A program made the position numbers and the translations under genes. Shown here piece by piece: positions 8,991-40,658 of a stretch of 64,000 bases of DNA. The stretch's first letter is position 1; each line of letters starts with the position of its first letter. A model generated the notes under the pieces. The model worked only from the letters and a program-made list of their open reading frames with translations, was not told the DNA's origin and did no database searches. Source of the DNA: a phage; sequence record NC_101835.1, one strand, 5' to 3'.

Positions 8991-9077
8991 TGGTGGGGAG
9001 TGGTGGAGTCGAACCACCCGAGTCGCAATGACAATAGATTTACAGTCTACACCGCTACCTCTACGGGATAACTCCCC
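8991..9077 (-). tRNA. tRNA-Tyr (anticodon GTA), type II
   Basis: 87 nt, acceptor GGGGAGT/ACTCCCC, anticodon loop CTGTAAA, long variable arm, T-arm GTGG-TTCGACT-CCAC, encoded CCA. Confidence 0.75.
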
Positions 9078-9081
9078 AATT

Positions 9082-9156
9082 TGGCACCCCGTACTGGACT
9101 CGAACCAGTGTCAACGGCTTAGAAGGCCGCTGCTTTATCCACTAAGCTAACAGGGC
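9082..9156 (-). tRNA. tRNA-Arg (anticodon TCT)
   Basis: 75 nt, acceptor GCCCTGT/ACGGGGT (two G-U), D-arm GCTT-AGTGGATA-AAGC, anticodon loop CTTCTAA, T-arm ACTGG-TTCGAGT-CCAGT, encoded CCA. Confidence 0.75.
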
Positions 9157-13120: not shown

Positions 13121-14056
13121 ATGACAAATGAGGAACGCATGATGAAGTATTTTAATGCAGACGACCTAGTTGACAAAGGTCTTGTAACCAGCAGATATTA
13201 CCCAGATCTTGGATTAAAGATCTATAAATATGCCAGAAAAGTATTTTACAACAATTTATGGCATTTGTCTCCTCGTTTGCTGGAGTGCCGAGGCATTGTT
13301 GTAGGTAATGAAGGGAATGTTGTGGCATGGCCCTTCACAAAAGTGTTTAACTTGGGAGAAAACTCCACCAACCTGCCTGACAATAAGCTTGTGACGGCGG
13401 TAGAGAAAAAGAACGGATTCCTTGGTGTGGTATCATCTCATAAAGGTGACCTATTGTTCTCAACAACCGGGTCTCTTGATTCTCCATATTGTAACCTTGC
13501 AAAGGAAACCATCCAAGAGCAATGTGGTAATTTAGATCTTATCAAGAAGGTTATGGGCAATGAAAACATGACATTCATGTTTGAAATTTGTCACCCTTCA
13601 GATCCGCATATTGTTCAAGAAGACCATGGCGCATATTTGATAGGTTGCAGATATAATGATTCTGGAATAATGCTACCAGAAGCAGCTTTAGATGGGATTG
13701 CCAAATACCTTGGTGCAAAACGTCCTCACACTGTGCGTGAAATCCCGTTCAGCTATGCAAAAGAATTAGCTGCAGAAACAAGGGGCGAAGGGTATATGAT
13801 CCGTAAGCCTTACTACCCTTATGACCTGCAGCTGAAGATCAAGTCTCCATACTATTTGGCACGGAAGGCCGTAATGAGAGGTAAAGCATGGAAGATTTGG
13901 GATGACGATATTTTTAAACGTGTTGACGAGGAGTTTTACGGTATGGTAAAATTTATTCGTAGCAACTATACAGAAGATGTGTGGAATTGCTTATTAGAGC
14001 AGGAGCGTCGCGAGATACTGGACTGCTATTTCCACAACGAGGACTATATGCAATGA
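13121..14056 (+). CDS. rnlA: RNA ligase 1 (T4 RnlA-like)
   Basis: Recalled similarity to T4 Rnl1: LLECRGIVV, KVFNLGEN, nucleotidyltransferase motif I KKNG. Confidence 0.7.
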   Translation: MTNEERMMKYFNADDLVDKGLVTSRYYPDLGLKIYKYARKVFYNNLWHLSPRLLECRGIVVGNEGNVVAWPFTKVFNLGENSTNLPDNKLVTAVEKKNGFLGVVSSHKGDLLFSTTGSLDSPYCNLAKETIQEQCGNLDLIKKVMGNENMTFMFEICHPSDPHIVQEDHGAYLIGCRYNDSGIMLPEAALDGIAKYLGAKRPHTVREIPFSYAKELAAETRGEGYMIRKPYYPYDLQLKIKSPYYLARKAVMRGKAWKIWDDDIFKRVDEEFYGMVKFIRSNYTEDVWNCLLEQERREILDCYFHNEDYMQ

Positions 14057-14411: not shown

Positions 14412-15173
14412 ATGCGACGACTTATTGTTATTTCTGGTGCTGGTTTGAGCGCAGAATCTGGTATTCCCACCTTCCGATCTGGTAGCACTGCAATGTGGGA
14501 GAATTTCAGCATCGATGAGGTGTGCAACATCCACACCTTTGCCAAGAACTACTATAAGGTGCATGACTTTTACAATGCACGTCGTGTAGCTCTGGGCAGT
14601 GTTGATCCTAACCTTGCACATCTTCGGATCGCTGAGTGGTATTCCCGCTGGTCTGGTCGTGTGATCAACCTTACTACCAATGTAGATGATTTGCTGGAGC
14701 GTGCTGGTGTAAAACATGAAGATATTTTACATGTCCACGGGTATTTGCCTGAAATCACCTACGAAGATGCTGAAGGTAATGATGTAATTAAAAATATCGG
14801 ATACACGGAGGTAGATACAGGCAAGTATACCTGGGTTAAGCCCAATGTAGTGTTCTTCGGTGAGGTTGCTCCTAAGTATACAGACATGTATGACCTGTTG
14901 ACATCTCTTACCAGCAATGATATGGTGATCCTGGTAGGTTGTTCTAACACAGTTATTAATTTTAACTGGGAATTGTTTCCTGCTACTTGTAAAGGCACAA
15001 AACTGCTGATTGTAAACAAGTATGATTCGCAGAGTGCAGATGGAAGTGGCATTTCACGTAGCGACCTTTATCAATATGAGGATCGCGGGATCCCTGTATG
15101 GTTTAACGGTGCTGTTGACGCTTTCTCTGATAAAGCATTTATTGAAACTGTAGAAAACTTTATGGAACTGTAA
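14412..15173 (+). CDS. Sir2-family NAD-dependent deacylase/ADP-ribosyltransferase
   Basis: GAGLSAESGIPTFR NAD-binding motif and HG catalytic motif; no zinc-ribbon cysteines. Confidence 0.7.
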   Translation: MRRLIVISGAGLSAESGIPTFRSGSTAMWENFSIDEVCNIHTFAKNYYKVHDFYNARRVALGSVDPNLAHLRIAEWYSRWSGRVINLTTNVDDLLERAGVKHEDILHVHGYLPEITYEDAEGNDVIKNIGYTEVDTGKYTWVKPNVVFFGEVAPKYTDMYDLLTSLTSNDMVILVGCSNTVINFNWELFPATCKGTKLLIVNKYDSQSADGSGISRSDLYQYEDRGIPVWFNGAVDAFSDKAFIETVENFMEL

Positions 15174-26310: not shown

Positions 26311-26511
26311 ATGGGCAGATGTTCTAAAGGTGGCGATCCTGTAGTCAGATACGGTGACTGGCTAGAGGTGTATGATCTGGGAGGTAAGCTGGTGTATGCC
26401 TCCAGGATCACCCAAGACATGTGCTCCGATATGTTCAACAGATACCTTGCATTTAAGGCCAACATAAACCCAGACGAAATTTCCAAAATTAAAACAAGGA
26501 GAGCTAAATAA
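26311..26511 (+). CDS. hypothetical protein (66 aa)
   Basis: ORF, translationally coupled. Confidence 0.3.
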   Translation: MGRCSKGGDPVVRYGDWLEVYDLGGKLVYASRITQDMCSDMFNRYLAFKANINPDEISKIKTRRAK

Positions 26512-27494
26512 TGCTAAAACTGTGCACTGCAAAGATCATTGCTGACAGCATTTCCGAGAAAGGTAAGCGCATCACAACTTTTGAGCTAGAGTATCCTCGA
26601 ATTATTCACTCAGAGCTTATGACGCATCGAGTATTCAGCCGAAACGCCATGTCTTCCCGTGCAGTTCCTGTCGGCAAGATGCTGCAACAGATTGTGGAGA
26701 ATCCGGCAATGCCAGTTCGCTTCGGTGCAAATAAGCGAGGGATGGAAGATGGTGGGGAACACGATCAAAAGATCCGTGTAGAGTACACTGACATGGAGTT
26801 AACTCCTGAAGAATTTTGGAAAGAAGCTGCAAAAAACGCCGCTTGGCATGCAGAGAAGTTCGCCCTTGCTGGTTACCATAAGCAAGTATGTAACCGCTTA
26901 GTGGAGCCTTTTCAACGCATGAAAACAGTTGTAACAAGCACCGAGTGGAATAATTTTTTCCACCTCCGTTGCTGGCACGATGCGGATCCTACGATTCAGA
27001 TGTTGGCTAATTGTATGTGGGAGGCTCTTGGGAATAGCACTCCTGAAATCCTTAAACCGGGTCAATGGCACACCCCATATGTAGAGCACGTTTATTTGGA
27101 CGGAGAGTTTAACTACGCTGTGCGTGACACAGAAGGAAAGCTCTGCATTCTCGATACTAAAGAAGCTCTGTCTATCAGTGCTAGTTGCTGTGCACAAGTA
27201 TCTTATCGAAATATTGACAGCACGTTTGAAAAGGCAGACAGTGTGGCTAAAAAATTGATTGGTGGGGATCGTATTCATGCAAGCCCTTACGAGCACCAGG
27301 CAACACCTATGGATCACGATAACGCAATGGAACGTTTAAACTACTACCTGTCTTCATGTGAAATCACACAAGACATCAGTACTTGGCAGGAAGGTGTAAC
27401 CCATCAAGACCGTGATGGTAAATTCTGGTCTGCCAACTTTTGTGGGTGGGTTCAGCACAGACAACTGCTTAATAACCACTTCGTGAAAGGTTAA
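26511..27494 (+). CDS. thyX: ThyX-family protein (flavin-dependent thymidylate synthase-like, variant motif)
   Basis: ELMTHRVFSRNAMSSRA aligns to ThyX signature RHRxxSxNxxSxRY with R-to-T and Y-to-A changes. Confidence 0.55.
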   Translation: MLKLCTAKIIADSISEKGKRITTFELEYPRIIHSELMTHRVFSRNAMSSRAVPVGKMLQQIVENPAMPVRFGANKRGMEDGGEHDQKIRVEYTDMELTPEEFWKEAAKNAAWHAEKFALAGYHKQVCNRLVEPFQRMKTVVTSTEWNNFFHLRCWHDADPTIQMLANCMWEALGNSTPEILKPGQWHTPYVEHVYLDGEFNYAVRDTEGKLCILDTKEALSISASCCAQVSYRNIDSTFEKADSVAKKLIGGDRIHASPYEHQATPMDHDNAMERLNYYLSSCEITQDISTWQEGVTHQDRDGKFWSANFCGWVQHRQLLNNHFVKG

Positions 27495-31738: not shown

Positions 31739-32017
31739 ATGAGCTGTGAAAAATCTTTTTTCTTTATTATTTACGGTAAAGATAACTGCCCACATTGTGT
31801 AAGAGCAAAAGAATTTGCAGTCAGTAAGGGTCTGCCTTTTGTATATAAGACACTTGGCGAGGGTTACACAAAAGAAGAGCTTATTGAGAAGTGCAGTCCA
31901 ATCGTACCCAGAACGTTGCCGCAGATCTTCTTAGAAAGTAATCTTGAAAGTGTCCATATAGGCGGTGCCGACGATTTCATCTCTTTTGTTAAGAATGGTT
32001 TTGGAGAGAAAAAGTGA
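31739..32017 (+). CDS. nrdC: glutaredoxin/thioredoxin (T4 NrdC-like)
   Basis: CPHC active site; C-terminal PQIF...HIGGADDF resembles T4 NrdC. Confidence 0.65.
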   Translation: MSCEKSFFFIIYGKDNCPHCVRAKEFAVSKGLPFVYKTLGEGYTKEELIEKCSPIVPRTLPQIFLESNLESVHIGGADDFISFVKNGFGEKK

Positions 32018-32874
32018 AAGTTGTAAAACGGGACGGTAGAGAAGAGGTCTATAACGGAATTAAGGTGATCAAGGCGGCAGAGTCCGCCTTACTTGAGTCT
32101 GGACATACTGAAGAAGAAGCTTACCGGATCGCCTGCGCGGTTAATGAAGTTGTTGCTAACAATCTACCAACCGACCAGTGCACGATCTCTGTAAAAAATA
32201 TCCATATCCTTGTTGAAGACGCTCTTATGGATATGGGTTTAAAATGTGCAGCCAGAGAATACATCCAGTATAGGCAGACAAGAGATAATAACAGAGAGGC
32301 AGGTGGAAAACTGCTTGCAGATATTAGTGGCTTCTTGGATCGCACTTGTGATGAATTTACAAAAGAAAACGCAAATAAGCCTACCAATCATGTACACACT
32401 CATCGTGACCTGCTTGCAGGCATCCTTAGCAAACACCTTGCATCAACACAGATCCTGCCAGACCGTGTCTCAGAAGAGCACAATAGAGGCTTCATCCATG
32501 TGCATGATCTTGACTACTTGATCAGTCCGTTAACAAACTGTTGTTTGGTAAATTATCCAGATATGTTGGAAAACGGATTCAATATTGGTAACGCCCATGT
32601 CAGTAAGCCGAAGTCAATAGGGGTTGCAACAACAATCCTTAGCCAAATCTCTAGTGCGGTAGCTAGTGCTCAATATGGTGGTCAGACTATGAGCCATATT
32701 GATCATTATCTGGCACAGTATGCTGAAGCAACCTATGAGAAGAACCTTAAATTTTGCCAGGAACATTGGTTGCCAGATGCTGAGACTGTTGCAATGCAAA
32801 TGACAGATAAGGACGTGTTTGACAGCATGCAGACGTTGCTTTATCAGATCAACACACTAACCTCGGTAAACGGT
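32014..32874 (+). CDS. nrdD: anaerobic ribonucleotide reductase NrdD, exon 1
   Basis: ATP-cone then collinear with T4 NrdD (HVHDLDY, TNCCLV, ENGFNIGNAHVSKPKSIGVAT); ends NTLTSVNG at GGT|TAA. Confidence 0.8.
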
Positions 32875-33131
32875 TAACAAACTGGCCGTTTTAAAACTCT
32901 GCTAACCTCAGTATGAGGGGTCAGCTGATCGCTGGCTAACGGGGAACGCTAAGGCGAAAGCTATGCCAATCCCGTGACTAGCTTCACAAGGAGTGAGGCG
33001 GTTGTAACGACTAACCTTTTGGTGTAGGGATTATGGAAGATTCCGAAACGCAGAGGTCTGATTAATAATCACACGGTGTGATTTCAGGCAAGAGATAGTC
33101 TGGCCTTGTGGAAACATAAGGGTGGGGACCG
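32875..33131 (+). mobile_element. group I intron 1 in nrdD (ORF-less, ~257 nt)
   Basis: Exon end AAACGGT pairs with intron GCCGUUU (P1 with U-G at splice site); intron ends in G before CAA encoding QTPF, restoring T4-like NrdD sequence. Confidence 0.6.
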
Positions 33132-33431
33132 CAAACCCCTTTTATCACATTAAGTTTAGGTCTGGACACCTCAGTATTTGGTAGAATGATTACCAAAAAC
33201 TACTTGAAAGTCCACAAAATGGGTCTTGGTGAAGAACGTATCACACCTGTGTTCCCTAAAGTGCTGTTCTTCCTAGAAGATGGTGTCAACATGAACCCTG
33301 GAGATCCTAACTATGATTTGAAACGATTAGCTCTGGAATGCTCTGCAGAGCGGATTTATCCTGACTTTGTTTCTGTTCCACTAAATCGTAAAGTGACAGG
33401 CTCGACAGATGGTAAAGTAACGAGCATGGGT
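33132..33431 (+). CDS. nrdD: NrdD, exon 2
   Basis: QTPFITLSLG...ITPVFPK...DPNYDLKRLALEC...SMG collinear with T4 NrdD; frame stops 2 codons after SMG. Confidence 0.75.
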
Positions 33432-34193
33432 AAACTATAACTGCTCATGTAAAATCTATCTAAACGGGGAAACTCCAGAACGGACAATCCCGTGCTAAAC
33501 GTAACAGAACTCCTGACCAAGAGGAGTCCTGAAATGAGAAAACAAATTCGTGATTTTGAAGGTTATGAAATTGACGAGATGGGCAATGTTTATTGCACCC
33601 GCTACGAAAATGAAAGAATTATTCATTCGTGGGAAGAGATAAACACAGGTTACCGTCTTGTTAGGATACGCAAGAACAAAAAGACTGTTTGCCTAAGGGT
33701 TCACAGACTTGTTGCTGAAGCGTTCTTACCAAATCCAGACAATTTACCCTATGTTAAGCACAAAGGGGACAACAGGAAAGATAACAGTGTATACAACCTT
33801 GAGTGGGGAGCTTGCCCAGACAATACGCAAGAAGGATACAACAACAACTGTTATGCTTTTTACACAAGATGCCACGGTGTGAAAGCCACCAACAAATTAA
33901 CTGGTGAGGTTTTCCACTTTAAAAGTCTGAGATGTTGTGCTGATGTTTTAGGAGTGGATAGAAAAAGAATATCTGCTATCCTGAAACGTGGTGCGCCTAA
34001 TAACTATGATTACGAGTTCTGTTACGAAATGCCTAACGACTAACCGTGATGAATGTAGCGGTGTAGGGTGTAAGCCGATGACACTCGAAATGGTAGACAC
34101 ACTAAGTGTGAAGATATAGTCTGATCTGCATGGGAACATGCAGCAGCACGTAAAGGTGCGGGGGTGGACTTGCGAACCACCCTGAACATAATG
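33432..34193 (+). mobile_element. group I intron 2 in nrdD, carrying HNH homing endonuclease ORF
   Basis: Exon end CATGGGT pairs with intron GCTCATG (P1); intron ends in G before TGT encoding CRSF, matching T4 SPMGCRSF. Confidence 0.6.
33492..34043 (+). CDS. HNH homing endonuclease (intron-encoded)
   Basis: GYEIDEMGNVY...HRLVAEAFLPNP...KHKGDNRKDNSVYNLEWG, typical phage HNH family. Confidence 0.7.
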   Translation: MLNVTELLTKRSPEMRKQIRDFEGYEIDEMGNVYCTRYENERIIHSWEEINTGYRLVRIRKNKKTVCLRVHRLVAEAFLPNPDNLPYVKHKGDNRKDNSVYNLEWGACPDNTQEGYNNNCYAFYTRCHGVKATNKLTGEVFHFKSLRCCADVLGVDRKRISAILKRGAPNNYDYEFCYEMPND

Positions 34194-35171
34194 TGTAGAA
34201 GTTTCTTATCGAAATATAGCGACCCTGTAACAGGCGAGGAGAAATACCTTGGCAGATTTAACTTAGGCGTTGTTAGCATTAACCTGCCAATGATTGCGGC
34301 AAAAGCTAAAACGGAAGGTGTTGATTTCTTTGCAGTTCTTGACGAATACCTGGATCTTGCATACGAGGCTCACCTTGTAAGGGTTAATCGTCTAAAAGGG
34401 GCAAAGGCAGGGCAGAACCCTATCATGTGGTGTGAAGGCGCTCTTGCTCGCCTGGATCCTGAAGAGAGTATTGATAAACTCTTCTATGACGGGTACGCTT
34501 CCATCAGTATTGGGTATATTGGTGTGTATGAAACCTGTCAGATTTTGGGCAGAGAGGGTGACAAGGCTTTAGCTCTTGGAATCCTTCAGCACATGAGAGA
34601 TGCTTGTGAGAGATACAAGAAGGAAAGTAGACTAGCGTTTAGCTTGTACGGCACCCCTTCTGAGAGTCTATGCTATAAAGCTGCAACCTGTCTGGATCGT
34701 GAATATCCTGAAGTGTTGAAGCACGAGCATGAATATCTCACCAACAGTTTCCATCAGCCAGTATGGATCAATAGCTCTCCTTTTGATAAGTGGAAGTATG
34801 AGGAAGGTTTTGCTATGATCTCCTCTGGTGGCAACATCGGATACGTAGAGACACCAAATCTGAAAAACAACTTAGATGCTTTGGAAGCTCTTGTTGATTT
34901 CGGATATAAACACATTATGTATTTTGGTATCAACCAGCCTGTGGATAAATGTCTTAAGTGTGGTTTCTCTGGTGAGTTCAGTGCAACAGCTAAAGGGTTC
35001 TGCTGCCCTGCGTGCGGATGCCACGATGAACAATATATCTCAGTGATCCGAAGAGTGTCTGGCTATCTCTCCAGCCCGAACAGTAGACCGTATAACACAG
35101 GTAAACAAGCAGAGGTTATCGAACGTGTTAAACATGTTGGGAATGTAGACTGGTGTCCGTTGAGTAAATAA
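34194..35171 (+). CDS. nrdD: NrdD, exon 3 (glycyl-radical C-terminus)
   Basis: CRSFLS...NLGVVSINLP, zinc ribbon CLKCG...CPACGC, glycyl radical motif RVSGYL. Confidence 0.8.
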   Translation, partial: CRSFLSKYSDPVTGEEKYLGRFNLGVVSINLPMIAAKAKTEGVDFFAVLDEYLDLAYEAHLVRVNRLKGAKAGQNPIMWCEGALARLDPEESIDKLFYDGYASISIGYIGVYETCQILGREGDKALALGILQHMRDACERYKKESRLAFSLYGTPSESLCYKAATCLDREYPEVLKHEHEYLTNSFHQPVWINSSPFDKWKYEEGFAMISSGGNIGYVETPNLKNNLDALEALVDFGYKHIMYFGINQPVDKCLKCGFSGEFSATAKGFCCPACGCHDEQYISVIRRVSGYLSSPNSRPYNTGKQAEVIERVKHVGNVDWCPLSK

Positions 35172-35280
35172 GGAAAGAGATTGAGAGCAAGGATGCTCTC
35201 ATTTTTGTTTTTATTGACTTCTATTCCTCTTTTCTATAGTATGCAATATAAAGTGAATAGCGGAAGGGTCTGGTCTGGTA

Positions 35281-36213
35281 ATGAGGAGACTAACAACCGA
35301 AGAGTTTATAGAAAAAGCTCAGACTATACATGGTGACAAATATGATTACTTCAAAGTGGAGTATAAAAACAACAAGACACCTGTGTGTATAATTTGTCCT
35401 GAGCACGGTGAGTTCTGGCAAACCCCTGTGGCACATGCTTTCAAGAAGCATGGTTGTCCAAGGTGTGGTGGGTCAGCGAAAAAGAACACTGAAGAGTTCA
35501 TAAAAGAGGCTATGGTTGTTCATGGGGACAAGTACGATTACTCATTAGTCAAATATGCGAACATGAGAACGCCTGTAAAAATTGTTTGCCCTGAACACGG
35601 TGTGTTTGAACAATACCCTGAAAACCACTTATACCAAAGAAACGGCTGCCCAGAGTGCTATGACTTAAGACGTGGGCAAAGTCAAGCGTTAACCCATAAG
35701 GAGCATGCTGCAATTATCCACAAAGCCAACCCAGACATAGAAATATTAGAGAAAATTGCCAATGATAACACAAAAGTGCAATGTAGGTGCAAAATTTGTG
35801 GGTATAAGTGGTCTGCTAAACCTAATAACCTAAAAAGTGGTCGTGGCTGCTGTAAATGCGCACAAAATGGATTCTTATCTCATGAGTACGGTAAACTCTA
35901 CATTATGGTTGATGACTTAGAAGTGCCAACACTTATGAAAATCGGTGTATGCGTTAAAATGCACAGGAGGAAAAATGAGGTGCTTAACAGTGCTCGTAAA
36001 TCTGGCGCAGGTGTCCACACTCTTCACGTAGTAAAAACGTGGAGCGGATCAACTCAAAACATGGTAGACTTAGAAAAATCTGTGCATAAGGCCTTCAGCA
36101 AGTATAAAATAAACTTTCCTGTAAAATTTGACGGTAGCACTGAGTTTTTCTACTACAGGCCTGAAGTGTTTGACACGGTAGAAGAGGTATACAAGAAGAT
36201 TTGTGGTAAATGA
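35281..36213 (+). CDS. free-standing homing-endonuclease-like protein: 3 zinc-ribbon repeats plus C-terminal T5orf172 (GIY-YIG-like) domain
   Basis: Three ~60-aa repeats (HGDKYDY...CPEHG...GCPxC) and C-terminal T5orf172-like domain (EFFYY). Confidence 0.5.
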   Translation: MRRLTTEEFIEKAQTIHGDKYDYFKVEYKNNKTPVCIICPEHGEFWQTPVAHAFKKHGCPRCGGSAKKNTEEFIKEAMVVHGDKYDYSLVKYANMRTPVKIVCPEHGVFEQYPENHLYQRNGCPECYDLRRGQSQALTHKEHAAIIHKANPDIEILEKIANDNTKVQCRCKICGYKWSAKPNNLKSGRGCCKCAQNGFLSHEYGKLYIMVDDLEVPTLMKIGVCVKMHRRKNEVLNSARKSGAGVHTLHVVKTWSGSTQNMVDLEKSVHKAFSKYKINFPVKFDGSTEFFYYRPEVFDTVEEVYKKICGK

Positions 36214-36265
36214 TCGTAGAAAGATACACATATCTTAAACATGCTATAAACTAAGGAGGTACAGT

Positions 36266-36382
36266 ATGTCTACAGGTATTTATAAAATTTGCAAGTGCGG
36301 CTGTAGTTGCAATCTTCGTTGGTGCAAGGCACTAGACGATTTTATCTGGCATTGCCCTAAATGTGATGCGGAGTATCTATGA
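36266..36382 (+). CDS. small zinc-ribbon protein (38 aa)
   Basis: AAGGAGG RBS; CKCGCSC...CPKCD; below ORF-track size cutoff. Confidence 0.3.
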   Translation: MSTGIYKICKCGCSCNLRWCKALDDFIWHCPKCDAEYL

Positions 36383-36852
36383 ACATTGTCGGATACACAG
36401 AAATATCTTACACCGAAGGGCCAGGTATTAGAACTGCCTTGTGGGTATCTGGGTGCCCACACGCTTGCCCTGGTTGCTTTAATCAGGCATTTTGGTCAAA
36501 AGATAAGGGGAGGGAGTTCACTGAAGAAGACTTGCAAAAAATCTTGTCAGATTTAGATAACCCGTCTGTGTGCGGTATCTCTCTGCTGGGTGGAGAACCC
36601 TTAGCATACTATAATGAGCCAGATATTATTAGCCTGATGGAGAAAATTAAGGAAAAATTTGGTGACAAGAAAACTATTCTTGTATATACTGGGTTCACAT
36701 TTGACCATATCTCTAGTAATGTTCTTAAACTGGCTGATATCATCATTGACGGTAAGTATGTAAAAGATTTACCAACCAAGAAACCGTTCCGAGGTAGCGA
36801 TAACCAAAGAATGTTTAAAAAAGTAGCAGGCGGTTGGGTCCAGGTAGACTAG
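36379..36852 (+). CDS. nrdG: anaerobic ribonucleotide reductase activating protein
   Basis: Radical-SAM cluster motif CPHACPGC. Confidence 0.8.
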   Translation: MNIVGYTEISYTEGPGIRTALWVSGCPHACPGCFNQAFWSKDKGREFTEEDLQKILSDLDNPSVCGISLLGGEPLAYYNEPDIISLMEKIKEKFGDKKTILVYTGFTFDHISSNVLKLADIIIDGKYVKDLPTKKPFRGSDNQRMFKKVAGGWVQVD

Positions 36853-36855
36853 TTG

Positions 36856-36885
36856 TTGACAAAGCTTTGTTTAGATAGGTATAAT
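36856..36885 (+). promoter_or_regulatory. sigma70-like promoter
   Basis: TTGACA-N18-TATAAT. Confidence 0.45.
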
Positions 36886-36916
36886 TATCGTAAAATGAAA
36901 GCAGAGGAGGTGCCAA

Positions 36917-37030
36917 ATGGCTAAAAAAGCCTTGAAGAAGGCGTACAAGAAAGAGATTGCGCTTGAGCTTAAGAAAAAACACAAGCGTGAAAAGAAACAT
37001 CATGAAGATGAAGAGGGGGTGCAACAGTGA
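36917..37030 (+). CDS. small lysine-rich protein (37 aa)
   Basis: GAGGAGG RBS; below ORF-track cutoff. Confidence 0.3.
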   Translation: MAKKALKKAYKKEIALELKKKHKREKKHHEDEEGVQQ

Positions 37031-37377
37031 CACAAGAACGTATCGATTTGGCTAATAAGTTTGTAGATCTCATTTTGCCACGGTTAGTTACTCAACATGC
37101 AGATGCTATTTCTACTAATCTTGATGGCTTACGTCTAATGCTGAATCGCACAGATGACCCTCGTATTCGGGCTGATTTAGAAGCCTCTGCCAACAAACTG
37201 GAAAAGTTCTTGCAAGTAGGTACGCAAGAAGCCTTACACAAGATTATGGTGGAAGGTTTCTCTAAAGAATTTACCATTAAAGAGCTTAAGGAGCTGATCC
37301 ACCAAGAAGAGATGAATATCCGAGTTCAGGCTGTTGCAAGCAGCATGGAAGCGGCTATTGAAAAACTGTTGCAGTAA
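37027..37377 (+). CDS. hypothetical protein (116 aa)
   Basis: Translationally coupled ORF. Confidence 0.4.
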   Translation: MTQERIDLANKFVDLILPRLVTQHADAISTNLDGLRLMLNRTDDPRIRADLEASANKLEKFLQVGTQEALHKIMVEGFSKEFTIKELKELIHQEEMNIRVQAVASSMEAAIEKLLQ

Positions 37378-37415
37378 AAGTTCCAGACACATCTCAATCT
37401 GAAAGGAGTCCCAAC

Positions 37416-38210
37416 ATGGGTCGAGCTAAAGAAACAAAACGCATGCGTGATGAAGCTAAAGAGGCTCGCAAATCTGATCGCCTGCGTAAAGCTGCTGAGA
37501 AATTTGCTGAAGAACGAGAGCACACAGCTCCAGCTCTCCGACCGATGAATAAAAAACAAGAGTATTATCTCCACCTTCTTAAAACTAAACAGTTAGTGAT
37601 CGCAACAGGGCTGTTTGGCACAGGCAAGTCGTTTATGGCTGCAGCTTATGCTGCAGACCTGCTTCGTAAGAACGAGATTGATAGAATTATTGTTTGCCGC
37701 CCAAATGTTGAATGTGGAAGCCATGGCACGGGGTTCAAACCTGGAGGTGTATTACAGAAAAACGAACCTTTCTTAAAATCAATTTTAGAAACTCTCAAAA
37801 AACGACTCGGACCTGGTGCTTATAGTACGTTATTGGGAGACGGTCAGACTGGGCGCATCGAGGTGCAAGAGGTTGCAACAATCCGAGGTCGAGATTTCTC
37901 TGATCGTTGCATCATCCTAGTTGATGAGTTTCAGTTGACAACCTGTGCAGAGGCTTTGGCAATTGCCACACGGCTTGGTGAGCATGCACAAATGATTTGC
38001 ATGGGAGACTTACGACAGAACGATCTCAAAGGCACCTCAGGACTTCAGTGGCTGATCGACTTTGTAACGAGGCACGAAATCAACGGTGTTGGTATCGTAG
38101 ATTTTGACGAGCCAGAAGATGTGGTTCGCTCAGGTATTGGTAGACTGTTTGCACTAGGCCTTATGACTGACCGTAATAAAGGTGTGTGGACCCCTGAGGC
38201 AGGTTTATAA
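37416..38210 (+). CDS. phoH: PhoH-like ATPase
   Basis: Walker A GLFGTGKS, Walker B ILVDEFQ. Confidence 0.8.
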   Translation: MGRAKETKRMRDEAKEARKSDRLRKAAEKFAEEREHTAPALRPMNKKQEYYLHLLKTKQLVIATGLFGTGKSFMAAAYAADLLRKNEIDRIIVCRPNVECGSHGTGFKPGGVLQKNEPFLKSILETLKKRLGPGAYSTLLGDGQTGRIEVQEVATIRGRDFSDRCIILVDEFQLTTCAEALAIATRLGEHAQMICMGDLRQNDLKGTSGLQWLIDFVTRHEINGVGIVDFDEPEDVVRSGIGRLFALGLMTDRNKGVWTPEAGL

Positions 38211-38251
38211 TATATAGGAGAGAGGGTGATATTATTCACCCTCTATTTAAG

Positions 38252-39181
38252 ATGCGTTTAGGAGAACAGTTATCACGAGAAGAAGTGTTTATCAAGAAAG
38301 CTACTGATAAGCATGGTGACAAGTATGATTACTCCAAAGTTGTATACAAAAACAACACAACACCTGTGAATATAGTGTGCAACAAGTGTGGTACAGTTTT
38401 TAGTAAAACTCCTAAGTCTCACCTTATAGGCGCAGGATGCCCAGATTGTAAGAACAGGGAGTTAAGTGAGAGATTCCGAATGTCTAAGGAGGAGTTTGTA
38501 AAAAGGGCAACAGAACTGCACAAGGGGAAGTATGACTACTCTCTTGTAAAAAGTTTTTCTAACAGGAACGACACTGTTACTATTATTTGCCCCATCCACG
38601 GAGAGTTCAAGCAGACAGTTGCAAATCATTTAGCTGGTGGGTGCTACAAGTGTGGAAAAAGAGCGACAGCTAAAAAGATGAGGAAGTCTAAAGATAGATT
38701 CATAGAGGATGCTACTCAACTACACGGAGACATATATGACTATTCAGAAGTGAAGTATGTGAATACCCACACTCCTGTAACCATTATCTGCAAGTCTTGC
38801 GGGTGTAAGTTTCTTCAACAGCCTGCAAACCACCTGTGCGGTAACGGTTGCCCAGAATGCTCTACTTCAGGATTCAGGCAGAGTACTAAAGAGAGCTGTC
38901 TGTACCTTCTTGTTGATGATCTTACCATTCCCACGGTTATAAAAGTTGGGGTGACTATCAATCTACAGAGCAGACTATACAACATAAGAAGGAACACAAA
39001 TTTTCCTGTTCACGTGCTTAAAGTATTTACTTTCGAGCAGGGGTGTGCTACCATGCAGCTTGAAAAATTGGTGCATAAAGTCTTTGCAGATCGCAACTGC
39101 CACTTCGAAGGTTTCGACGGGGCAACGGAGTGGTTCTGGTACTCTCATGATATTGTAGAGTTTCTAGAAGACAATTGTTGA
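38252..39181 (+). CDS. free-standing homing-endonuclease-like protein, paralog of 35281..36213
   Basis: Same architecture: three HGDKYDY/zinc-ribbon repeats and C-terminal T5orf172-like domain (EWFWY). Confidence 0.5.
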   Translation: MRLGEQLSREEVFIKKATDKHGDKYDYSKVVYKNNTTPVNIVCNKCGTVFSKTPKSHLIGAGCPDCKNRELSERFRMSKEEFVKRATELHKGKYDYSLVKSFSNRNDTVTIICPIHGEFKQTVANHLAGGCYKCGKRATAKKMRKSKDRFIEDATQLHGDIYDYSEVKYVNTHTPVTIICKSCGCKFLQQPANHLCGNGCPECSTSGFRQSTKESCLYLLVDDLTIPTVIKVGVTINLQSRLYNIRRNTNFPVHVLKVFTFEQGCATMQLEKLVHKVFADRNCHFEGFDGATEWFWYSHDIVEFLEDNC

Positions 39182-39236
39182 CAAACAGATAAGCTTTAGG
39201 TATTATTATCGGACAAAACAAGGAGAAGGAGATAGT

Positions 39237-39548
39237 ATGGCTACAATACAAGAGAGACTGAATAAAATATACTGCCTGTTTGTCTATAACGGCGAGACAA
39301 TTTTGGCAAATAAAGGATCCAAGAATGTGTGGATCAAGGACAGTGGTGGTAATATAATCAACTTAGCGTTGCTACGTGAGCGCCGACACAGATTCTTTAT
39401 CGAGTCTCGGATTATTGAAAGCAGCACCTGCTACAGAACAGGCGATAAAGTAATTGTTGACAATGATACGTGGTATGTGGTAGACTGGCAATCATTGAGC
39501 TGTGATGCTTCTGACAATCGTAAGTATTCCCTAGTGATTGCTAAATAA
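39237..39548 (+). CDS. hypothetical protein (103 aa)
   Basis: GGAG RBS. Confidence 0.35.
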   Translation: MATIQERLNKIYCLFVYNGETILANKGSKNVWIKDSGGNIINLALLRERRHRFFIESRIIESSTCYRTGDKVIVDNDTWYVVDWQSLSCDASDNRKYSLVIAK

Positions 39549-39608
39549 AGGTAAATGTGAATCAGTTTTAAATAAATAGCTTTCAACTTCCAATATTAAG
39601 GATTTCTC

Positions 39609-40658
39609 ATGAATTTAACACCTCGCAGCACCATGGTACACGGCATGAAAGAAAAACAGAACGGTTTCGAACCTATGAGTAATAAAATGTTTGGTATGCC
39701 GGGTGGTATTATGGAAACATACAGCTACCCAACACCTGTTGTTGACCACGTTCTTTATATCGACGATTTGGAAGACTTACAAGATCATATGTCTCGTCTG
39801 CAGACGATCCGTATGGCTCAGCCAGAAGAAAGTATCCGTGTAATCATTAACAGTCCTGGTGGTTGCGTTCACATTGCTATGGCGTATTTGCAGGCATTCC
39901 GCGAGTCTCAGGCAAGCGTTGTTGCACATGCTGAAGGGATGTGCTGCTCTGCTGGAACAATCTTATGGCTTGGTTGTAAAGAACGTACTGTGGCTCCGGA
40001 CACAGAGTTTATGTTCCACTACTATCAAGGTGGCACTTATGGTAACGGTGTGAACATGAATACTCAGGTCAGCTACTGGAAAAAACGTTTTGAACGCCTG
40101 ATCGAAAAATACTACGGTGGGGTGCTGACAGAAGATGAGATCGCATCCATCACAGCTGGTGGCGAAGTGTGGTTGGACGGAGAAGAGCTGGCAGCACGCA
40201 CTGGAGCTATTATTCTGGATGAAGGCAACATACAACGCATCCAGAACGGACAAAAACCGAAAAAGCTTCTGGCAAAAGGTGATGAAGAAGGCGTGTTAGG
40301 TGAAGCAGGTCTTCCGGAGATTCACCAGTGCACATCTTTAGATGAGTTAGTTCATGCTGTTGAATCTGCAAAAGCGGGTGGTTCGAAAGGTGATGTTCAC
40401 ACTGTGTTCCTGAATCTGCAGATGGAAAGTGGCGAGACCGTCAGAATTGCCCTGAGTGAGATTACTTCAGAAGATCTGCAGAGATTCTCTGTCGTTGAAC
40501 TTCAGGATATTCTGTCTCAATTGAAGACTACTCTGAACGGCGGTGAAGAGGTTAAGGTGAAAGATAAGACTCGCAAGCGTCTGGTGGACAATATTATTAA
40601 AACAGCAAAAGAGCTCAATGAAAAAATCCTGGGTGCAGGAATTGTCGAAGAAGCTTAA
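39609..40658 (+). CDS. ClpP-family (S14) serine protease-like protein with ~150-aa C-terminal extension
   Basis: IINSPGGCV, catalytic-Ser context GMCCSAGT, His in FMFHYY, as in ClpP. Confidence 0.6.
   Translation: MNLTPRSTMVHGMKEKQNGFEPMSNKMFGMPGGIMETYSYPTPVVDHVLYIDDLEDLQDHMSRLQTIRMAQPEESIRVIINSPGGCVHIAMAYLQAFRESQASVVAHAEGMCCSAGTILWLGCKERTVAPDTEFMFHYYQGGTYGNGVNMNTQVSYWKKRFERLIEKYYGGVLTEDEIASITAGGEVWLDGEELAARTGAIILDEGNIQRIQNGQKPKKLLAKGDEEGVLGEAGLPEIHQCTSLDELVHAVESAKAGGSKGDVHTVFLNLQMESGETVRIALSEITSEDLQRFSVVELQDILSQLKTTLNGGEEVKVKDKTRKRLVDNIIKTAKELNEKILGAGIVEEA

Follow-up and report, generated by a model that had tools for sequence, protein, structure and literature searches.

Homing endonuclease genes that combine repeated CapR, DUF723 and DUF4379 zinc fingers with a T5orf172 domain have been described in phage ICP1 and in about 200 phages besides it (Barth, Dunham & Seed 2023, PMC10448857). 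The class is enriched beside terminase, ribonucleotide reductase and capsid genes and is found at boundaries of genetic exchange; according to its describers, its homing has not been experimentally verified (PMC10448857). ICP1 Odn, a T5orf172 protein, cuts DNA in vitro, and this activity is lost when a conserved Glu is mutated (PMC8263062). Here we consider two genes of this kind, A and B, in a 64,000-nucleotide (nt) stretch of phage record NC_101835.1 (the window), which comes from a Vequintavirus (rV5-like) coliphage. Both are on the + strand, A at 35281-36213 (310 amino acids, aa) and B at 38252-39181 (309 aa), exactly where a preliminary description made from the letters had put them. That description read the pair as free-standing homing endonucleases, and domain content, predicted fold, sporadic presence among relatives and altered flanks all support it. 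Taken together, the sequence evidence makes it probable that A and B are free-standing homing endonuclease genes, active now or until recently, whose products would cut DNA and so promote their own spread.

The two proteins are paralogous, as had been proposed, with 38% identity over their full length (BLASTP, E 1e-56), and no further copy of either was found in the window by tblastn. Both carry the anticipated T5orf172 domain at the C-terminus, above the Pfam threshold in each case (33.0 bits in A and 37.8 in B, cut-off 20), and both are assigned to PHROG 681 ('endonuclease'); no NCBIfam match was found for either. The domain is preceded by an array of treble-clef zinc-finger modules, for which the preliminary description claimed three shared repeats. 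Three modules of about 65 aa are indeed present in each protein, but they are not all of one kind, as the third module of A is of the CapR subtype and not of the HGDKYDY/DUF723 subtype to which all three modules of B belong. Pfam zinc-finger matches, all above threshold, are DUF723 (50.5 bits), CapR (39.5 bits) and DUF4379 (39.4 bits) in A, and DUF4379 (39.8 bits) and DUF723 (26.4 bits) in B. A module is made up of a helix, a conserved hairpin of the HGDKYDY type and a C-x2-[C/H]...C-x2-C zinc site with four ligands (C39/H42/C59/C62, C103/H106/C123/C126 and C170/C173/C190/C193 in A; C43/C46/C63/C66, C113/H116/C131/C134 and C180/C183/C200/C203 in B). All 12 ligands are intact in each protein, the Cys columns do not vary among the aligned homologs, and the modules can still be seen in the DNA as 98-nt repeats of 61-77% identity. 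Both open reading frames are intergenic, A following the nrdD stop codon, and no Rfam intron match overlaps either of them. A and B are members of the T5orf172 branch of the GIY-YIG superfamily and are not intron- or intein-borne.

A nuclease fold is predicted for the C-terminal domain in AlphaFold2 models built from small alignments (mean predicted local distance difference test score, pLDDT, 88.0 for A and 86.8 for B). The best PDB matches of the modelled domain are the GIY-YIG nucleases Slx1 and I-TevI, and also Mhr1/mL67, with AtGRXS16-N, EF2693, UvrC-N, Eco29kI, T4 EndoII and PD-T4-3 lower down. In the model of A, the helix, beta-hairpin and zinc ribbon recur three times over, and the most confident part is the C-terminal domain (pLDDT 92-96), predicted to adopt the GIY-YIG alpha/beta fold of a three-stranded sheet with flanking helices. 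The MUG113 profile, which had also been suggested as a check, matches B (34.0 bits, cut-off 22.3) but falls just short in A (21.2 bits). Apart from Cys, the only residues that do not vary in alignments of 21 and 16 homologs are a Tyr (strand 1), Lys-x-Gly (strand 2), an Arg that begins helix 1, Glu/His within helix 2 and a Glu that follows the last strand. They include a catalytic-type set (Y207, K220-x-G222, R230 and E288 in A; Y218, K231-x-G233, R241 and E293 in B), and such a pattern of Y, K-x-G, R and E is what would be expected of a GIY-YIG active site. The nuclease-domain profile matched no PDB sequence at E <= 10, and hhalign against the I-TevI catalytic domain gave a probability of 0.2, which is not significant. 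Because these sequence-only comparisons are not significant, the link to canonical GIY-YIG enzymes rests on the fold and on the Pfam classification, and we claim no sequence-level homology to I-TevI.

As the preliminary description stated, A lies 3' of the third nrdD exon and B 3' of phoH. With each gene plus its flanks as query, 119 Vequintavirus records matched the flanks; A is present in 18 of them and B in six, so that neither is strictly conserved. No record carries both, which makes the window a new combination of the two, and with it all four combinations exist. Murica, which is without A, B and the nrdD introns, provides the empty-site reference, with intact spacers of 176 bp and 101 bp. 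A and B are therefore present sporadically and independently of one another at fixed sites that have intact empty forms, as is expected of homing endonuclease genes, and each is strictly linked with an altered flank.

Where Murica and I29 have an uninterrupted nrdD, the gene of the window contains two insertions. The first insertion (32874-33130, 257 nt) is without an open reading frame, and the second (~33432-34201, ~770 nt) contains an HNH/NUMOD-like open reading frame at 33492-34043 (PHROG 59, 'HNH endonuclease'). Their Rfam group I intron matches, 30.1 and 35.3 bits, are both below the gathering score. Exon 3 also diverges more strongly from Murica over its first 100 nt (89% identity). A tie between A and these introns (collaborative homing) was considered and rejected: A is independent of them, because I29 has A beside an nrdD that is intron-less.

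The flank altered in carriers of A is the 3' end of nrdD. Compared with Murica by blastn, homology breaks at 35134 and returns at 36254 (Murica, L001, 5235 and 5309), with 1119 bp in place of 73 bp. The last 30 aligned nrdD codons (35043-35132) encode VIRRVSGYLSSPNSRPYN(T/K)GKQAEVIERVK, the glycyl-radical region (motif RVSGYL), and differ from Murica at 19 nt with only one aa change, compared with an average of ~1-2 nt differences per 15 codons over the preceding 270 codons. After 35134 the NrdD tail is replaced, and reads HVGNVDWCPLSK where Murica has HYGSCGC. This recoded end occurs in 18 records, the same number as carry A, and these include all nine A carriers listed. It is presumed to be an immune version of the region that A targets, and a carrier-specific change in the adjacent target gene, at the nrdD end for A and in phoH for B, is a further mark of homing endonuclease genes. 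In a distant phage (135-kb contig L007) the same nrdD-nrdG spacer is filled by P0094, which is 59% identical to A; nrdD in this phage is 72% identical in nt, and its NrdD ends in HVGNVDCCPLNR, the same type of tail as in the A carriers. The simplest reading of these sequences is that the A cassette entered Vequintavirus from an L007-like lineage by recombination and would have brought the donor nrdD end with it. Between the window and I29, A showed no clear excess of similarity over the backbone.

The flank altered in carriers of B is the 3' two-thirds of phoH. The first ~135 nt of phoH in the window are ~97% identical to Murica, after which identity drops abruptly to 55-60% in nt and about 55% in aa until the stop codon. 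Over 37550-38210 the aa identity to the native allele is 52%. At the DNA level this divergent segment is found in exactly the six records that carry B and in no other, and no DNA match to a donor was found beyond these six carriers. The next-best PhoH protein reaches 52% identity, whether sought in 50,697 phage genomes or in 5.8 billion proteins; with none closer than this, the donor lineage must be unsampled. The segment also lies at about the same distance from every PhoH protein of the Vequintavirinae. Homology to the empty site returns at 39168, 13 nt ahead of the B stop codon, which itself overlaps the -35 hexamer of the conserved, near-consensus promoter of the next gene. The window and YP-6 share 98.3% identity over the B cassette but 92.8-93.8% over the downstream backbone, which indicates transfer of the cassette between diverged backbones. 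The hairpin in front of B (Table 1) possibly limits its translation.

Other alleles occupy the spacer between nrdD and nrdG in JEP1 (311 aa), WalterGehring (330 aa) and SophiaRose (386 aa), the last two labelled by their depositors 'putative homing endonuclease' and 'putative GIY-YIG nuclease family protein', respectively. From ~35853 on, the nuclease-domain DNA of these three alleles is 76-97% identical to A, while their zinc-finger arrays differ in number and type; this is the domain shuffling described for the T5orf172 class. The nrdD end is of the Murica type in SophiaRose and WalterGehring and a hybrid in JEP1, and in WalterGehring the divergent region lies on the nrdG side instead. WalterGehring (L003 5336-5849; window 36376-36735) and the relatives of the naam/inoa/A51.2 type have extra small open reading frames and a divergent 5' region of nrdG, which lie just downstream of the endonuclease gene. 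This suggests that the nrdG side of the hotspot also undergoes replacement. It is possible, although we put it forward with some doubt, that the nrdD-nrdG site (the window and I29, JEP1, WalterGehring, SophiaRose and the L007 contig) holds an allelic series with a related nuclease, differing fingers and a flank variant proper to each member, and that B drove the replacement of two-thirds of phoH, a core gene, by a xenolog whose lineage is missing from all sequence sampled. Provided that the enzymes are active, the series could yield a DNA-recognition code for CapR/DUF723 fingers, and with it a natural programmable zinc-finger nuclease scaffold.

As homing endonucleases, A and B would act in a cell infected by both a carrier phage and a non-carrier Vequintavirus. 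The three-module array would bind a long site in the non-carrier allele, and the C-terminal GIY-YIG-type domain would cut near the bound site. The target of A may lie at or close to the 3' end of nrdD, which codes for the glycyl-radical region, or else in the nrdD-nrdG spacer; B may target native phoH, within its body or its 3' part, or the spacer that follows. The break would be repaired by recombination with the carrier genome as template, and the repair would copy the endonuclease gene together with the adjacent carrier stretch of nrdD or phoH (co-conversion), which may give the genes super-Mendelian inheritance. The altered flank of the carrier would escape cutting and shield it from self-cleavage; as it differs in sequence, it is presumably not cut.

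Three other explanations have to be weighed. A and B may have been homing endonucleases that no longer home, being either decaying relics or domesticated DNA-binding regulators of nrdG, phoH or their neighbours, in the manner of the PLE repressor CapR or of an I-TevI-style autorepressor. CapR, a domesticated transcriptional repressor, has a DNA-binding domain homologous to the zinc-finger modules, A lies just upstream of nrdG, the end of B reaches into the next promoter, and substitution counts among the copies give no clear sign of purifying selection. However, both proteins have kept a complete nuclease domain, all family-invariant residues and their 12 zinc ligands, and there is no frameshift in any carrier examined. 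A regulator of use to the phage would also be expected in more than 15% and 5% of close relatives, and without a tie to recoded flanks; we regard loss of homing as unlikely. We find it distinctly improbable that the proteins are weapons which cut competing phage, satellite or host DNA at unrelated sites, to the advantage of the carrier but without homing, as does ICP1 Odn, a T5orf172 nuclease re-targeted at a satellite (PMC8263062). The strict linkage of each gene to a replacement in the adjoining gene points to a target at the cognate locus, a homolog sits at the same nrdD-nrdG position in a distant phage, and the DNA-binding modules are of the ordinary homing-endonuclease type, whereas Odn uses a borrowed replication-initiator domain. 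A PADLOC match of B to the candidate defence family PDC-S57 would fit a weapon, but it is weak (E 1.4e-4), was the only one, and covers just part of the nuclease domain. Finally, passive carriage of the cassettes by ordinary homologous or illegitimate recombination, with no role for the proteins in their own spread, is very hard to credit: rV5-like genomes are mosaic with abrupt identity shifts (BASEL paper) and altered flanks are the trace of any recombination with a diverged donor, yet this leaves unexplained two paralogous genes of site-specific-nuclease type exactly at both recombination boundaries, several alleles of one family in a single spacer, and the enrichment of the whole class beside ribonucleotide reductase and other conserved genes.

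Table 1. Features of the A and B loci, in window positions.
Feature	Position	Strand	Remarks
nrdA, nrdB, grx	upstream of nrdD	+	gene order of 32-40 kb
nrdD, three pieces	32014-32877, 33186-33440, 34164-35171	+	
A cassette	35063..36253	+	recoded nrdD end, terminator, promoter-like site, gene A, 40 nt; differences cluster from 35063
Recoded nrdD 3' end linked to A	35063..35171	+	codon comparison and alignments with Murica
Terminator-like hairpin and T-run after nrdD	35182..35201	+	inside A cassette; hairpin reproduced by folding
Candidate sigma-70-like promoter, TTGACT-17-TAGTAT (9/12)	35214..35242	+	upstream of A; consensus match only
Gene A, 310 aa	35281..36213	+	free-standing, T5orf172/GIY-YIG homing-endonuclease-like
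A, three zinc-finger modules	35281..35868	+	aa 1-65 and 66-130, DUF723/DUF4379 type; aa 131-196, CapR type
A, T5orf172 nuclease domain	35869..36210	+	aa 197-310; invariant Y207, K220, G222, R230, E265, H269, E288
Cys-rich open reading frame, 38 codons	36266-36382	+	
nrdG	36379-36852	+	
Open reading frame, 116 aa	between nrdG and phoH	+	
phoH	37416-38210	+	
B cassette	37550..39167	+	foreign phoH segment, 41-nt hairpin-bearing spacer, gene B
Divergent 3' two-thirds of phoH linked to B	37550..38210	+	chimeric phoH
Stable RNA hairpin	38221..38244	+	8 nt before B ATG; dG -16.3 kcal/mol, z -3.05; no T-run
Gene B, 309 aa	38252..39181	+	A paralog; free-standing, T5orf172/GIY-YIG homing-endonuclease-like
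B, three zinc-finger modules	38252..38869	+	aa 1-72, 73-140 and 141-206, DUF723/DUF4379 type
B, T5orf172 nuclease domain	38870..39178	+	aa 207-309; Y218, K231, G233, R241, E271, E293
103-aa open reading frame, then ClpP-like protease	3' of gene B	+	

The stretch from 32 to 40 kb is the nucleotide-metabolism block of the phage (Table 1), in which nrdG, phoH and small open reading frames separate A from B and the two sites are ~2 kb apart. By megablast, positions 32000-40000 match 303 phage records, the best being E. coli phages of 98-99% identity such as phiWec191 and SophiaRose. GenBank records named 'Campylobacter phage' with the same backbone are also among the best matches. About two dozen of these (within MG065635-MG065690, host given as C. 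jejuni) are 97-100% identical to the rV5-like backbone of the window, and one so labelled, C2, is the closest to it in the B region; the C. jejuni host label looks doubtful.

The Cys-rich 38-codon frame (MSTGIYKICKCGCSCNLRWCKALDDFIWHCPKCDAEYL) overlaps the nrdG start by 4 nt and is conserved, also in empty-site phages; in relatives it is labelled 'hypothetical' or, oddly, as an NTP reductase protein. The annotation 'NTP reductase protein' in SophiaRose prompted the idea that it is a duplicated nrdD end made by the insertion, which was rejected as the same sequence is present in empty-site Murica.

Elsewhere in the window, products encoded in the early/middle region include an RNA ligase of the T4 type (13121-14056), a member of the Sir2 family (14412-15173) and a thymidylate synthase of the ThyX type (26511-27494). 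A cluster of Met, Thr, Ser, Tyr and Arg tRNAs is found on the - strand at 8432-9156, together with an odd 99-nt ARAGORN call at 8589-8687 whose anticodon has four bases and to which no amino acid is assigned. The large terminase gene is split (4464-6894, - strand): the frame at 6466-6894 covers Terminase_6N positions 2-104, and that at 4464-5552 continues from position 119 and includes Terminase_6C. An Rfam group I intron lies between the pieces at 5636-6478 (50.3 bits, gathering score 50), and the Endonuclease_7-domain frame inside it (5660-6250, E 2e-21) is probably another homing endonuclease, in this case intron-borne.

A and B are an expected instance of a described phenomenon, and their main value is as a test bed in E. 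coli. The phages are easily handled, natural isolates with and without the genes are already available, some of them in the BASEL collection, and the nrdD recoding seen only in carriers confines the likely target of A to ~110 bp. Should the enzymes prove active, they would offer the first tractable setting in E. coli for demonstrating T5orf172 homing. The chimeric phoH and the imported nrdD tail show such genes rewriting conserved phage genes, which bears on phage phylogenetics and on the engineering of therapeutic rV5-like phages.

With the class described in PMC10448857, A and B share an N-terminal zinc-finger array followed by a C-terminal T5orf172 domain, the 'beads on a string' repetition, module shuffling between alleles, variable presence among close relatives, and a position beside ribonucleotide reductase or other conserved genes at exchange boundaries; they have every testable property of that class. 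The main text of PMC10448857 makes no mention of rV5-like phages, nrdD/nrdG or phoH, and the synonymous recoding of nrdD and the chimeric phoH are locus-specific details here. The ICP1 copies are only ~27% identical to B.

The Seg enzymes of phage T4 are the closest worked-out mechanistic counterparts of A and B. SegF and SegG are free-standing GIY-YIG enzymes encoded between conserved genes, and are responsible for 'intronless homing' and marker exclusion. The cut made by Seg enzymes falls in the neighbouring gene of the non-carrier, at some distance from where the endonuclease gene is inserted, and co-conversion extends to flanking markers. SegG is cited as ref. 11 in PMC10448857. Seg enzymes have a canonical GIY-YIG domain at the N-terminus and bind DNA through the C-terminus, whereas A and B have the reverse order, a T5orf172 domain and three zinc-finger modules, and there is no sequence similarity between them beyond the fold. 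I-TevI, from T4 td, is encoded in an intron; its nuclease is N-terminal, and its C-terminus holds a minor-groove helix and a helix-turn-helix. A and B are free-standing and of opposite order, and sequence relatedness is not significant. ICP1 Odn (Gp88) shares the T5orf172 domain and is the only member with biochemically shown Glu-dependent cleavage, but it is a domesticated anti-satellite weapon whose RepA_N DNA-binding domain was taken from the satellite it attacks. The zinc-finger DNA-binding domain of PLE CapR is homologous to the third module of A, the one matched by Pfam CapR; CapR is described as a satellite-encoded transcriptional repressor, whereas A and B carry a complete nuclease domain.

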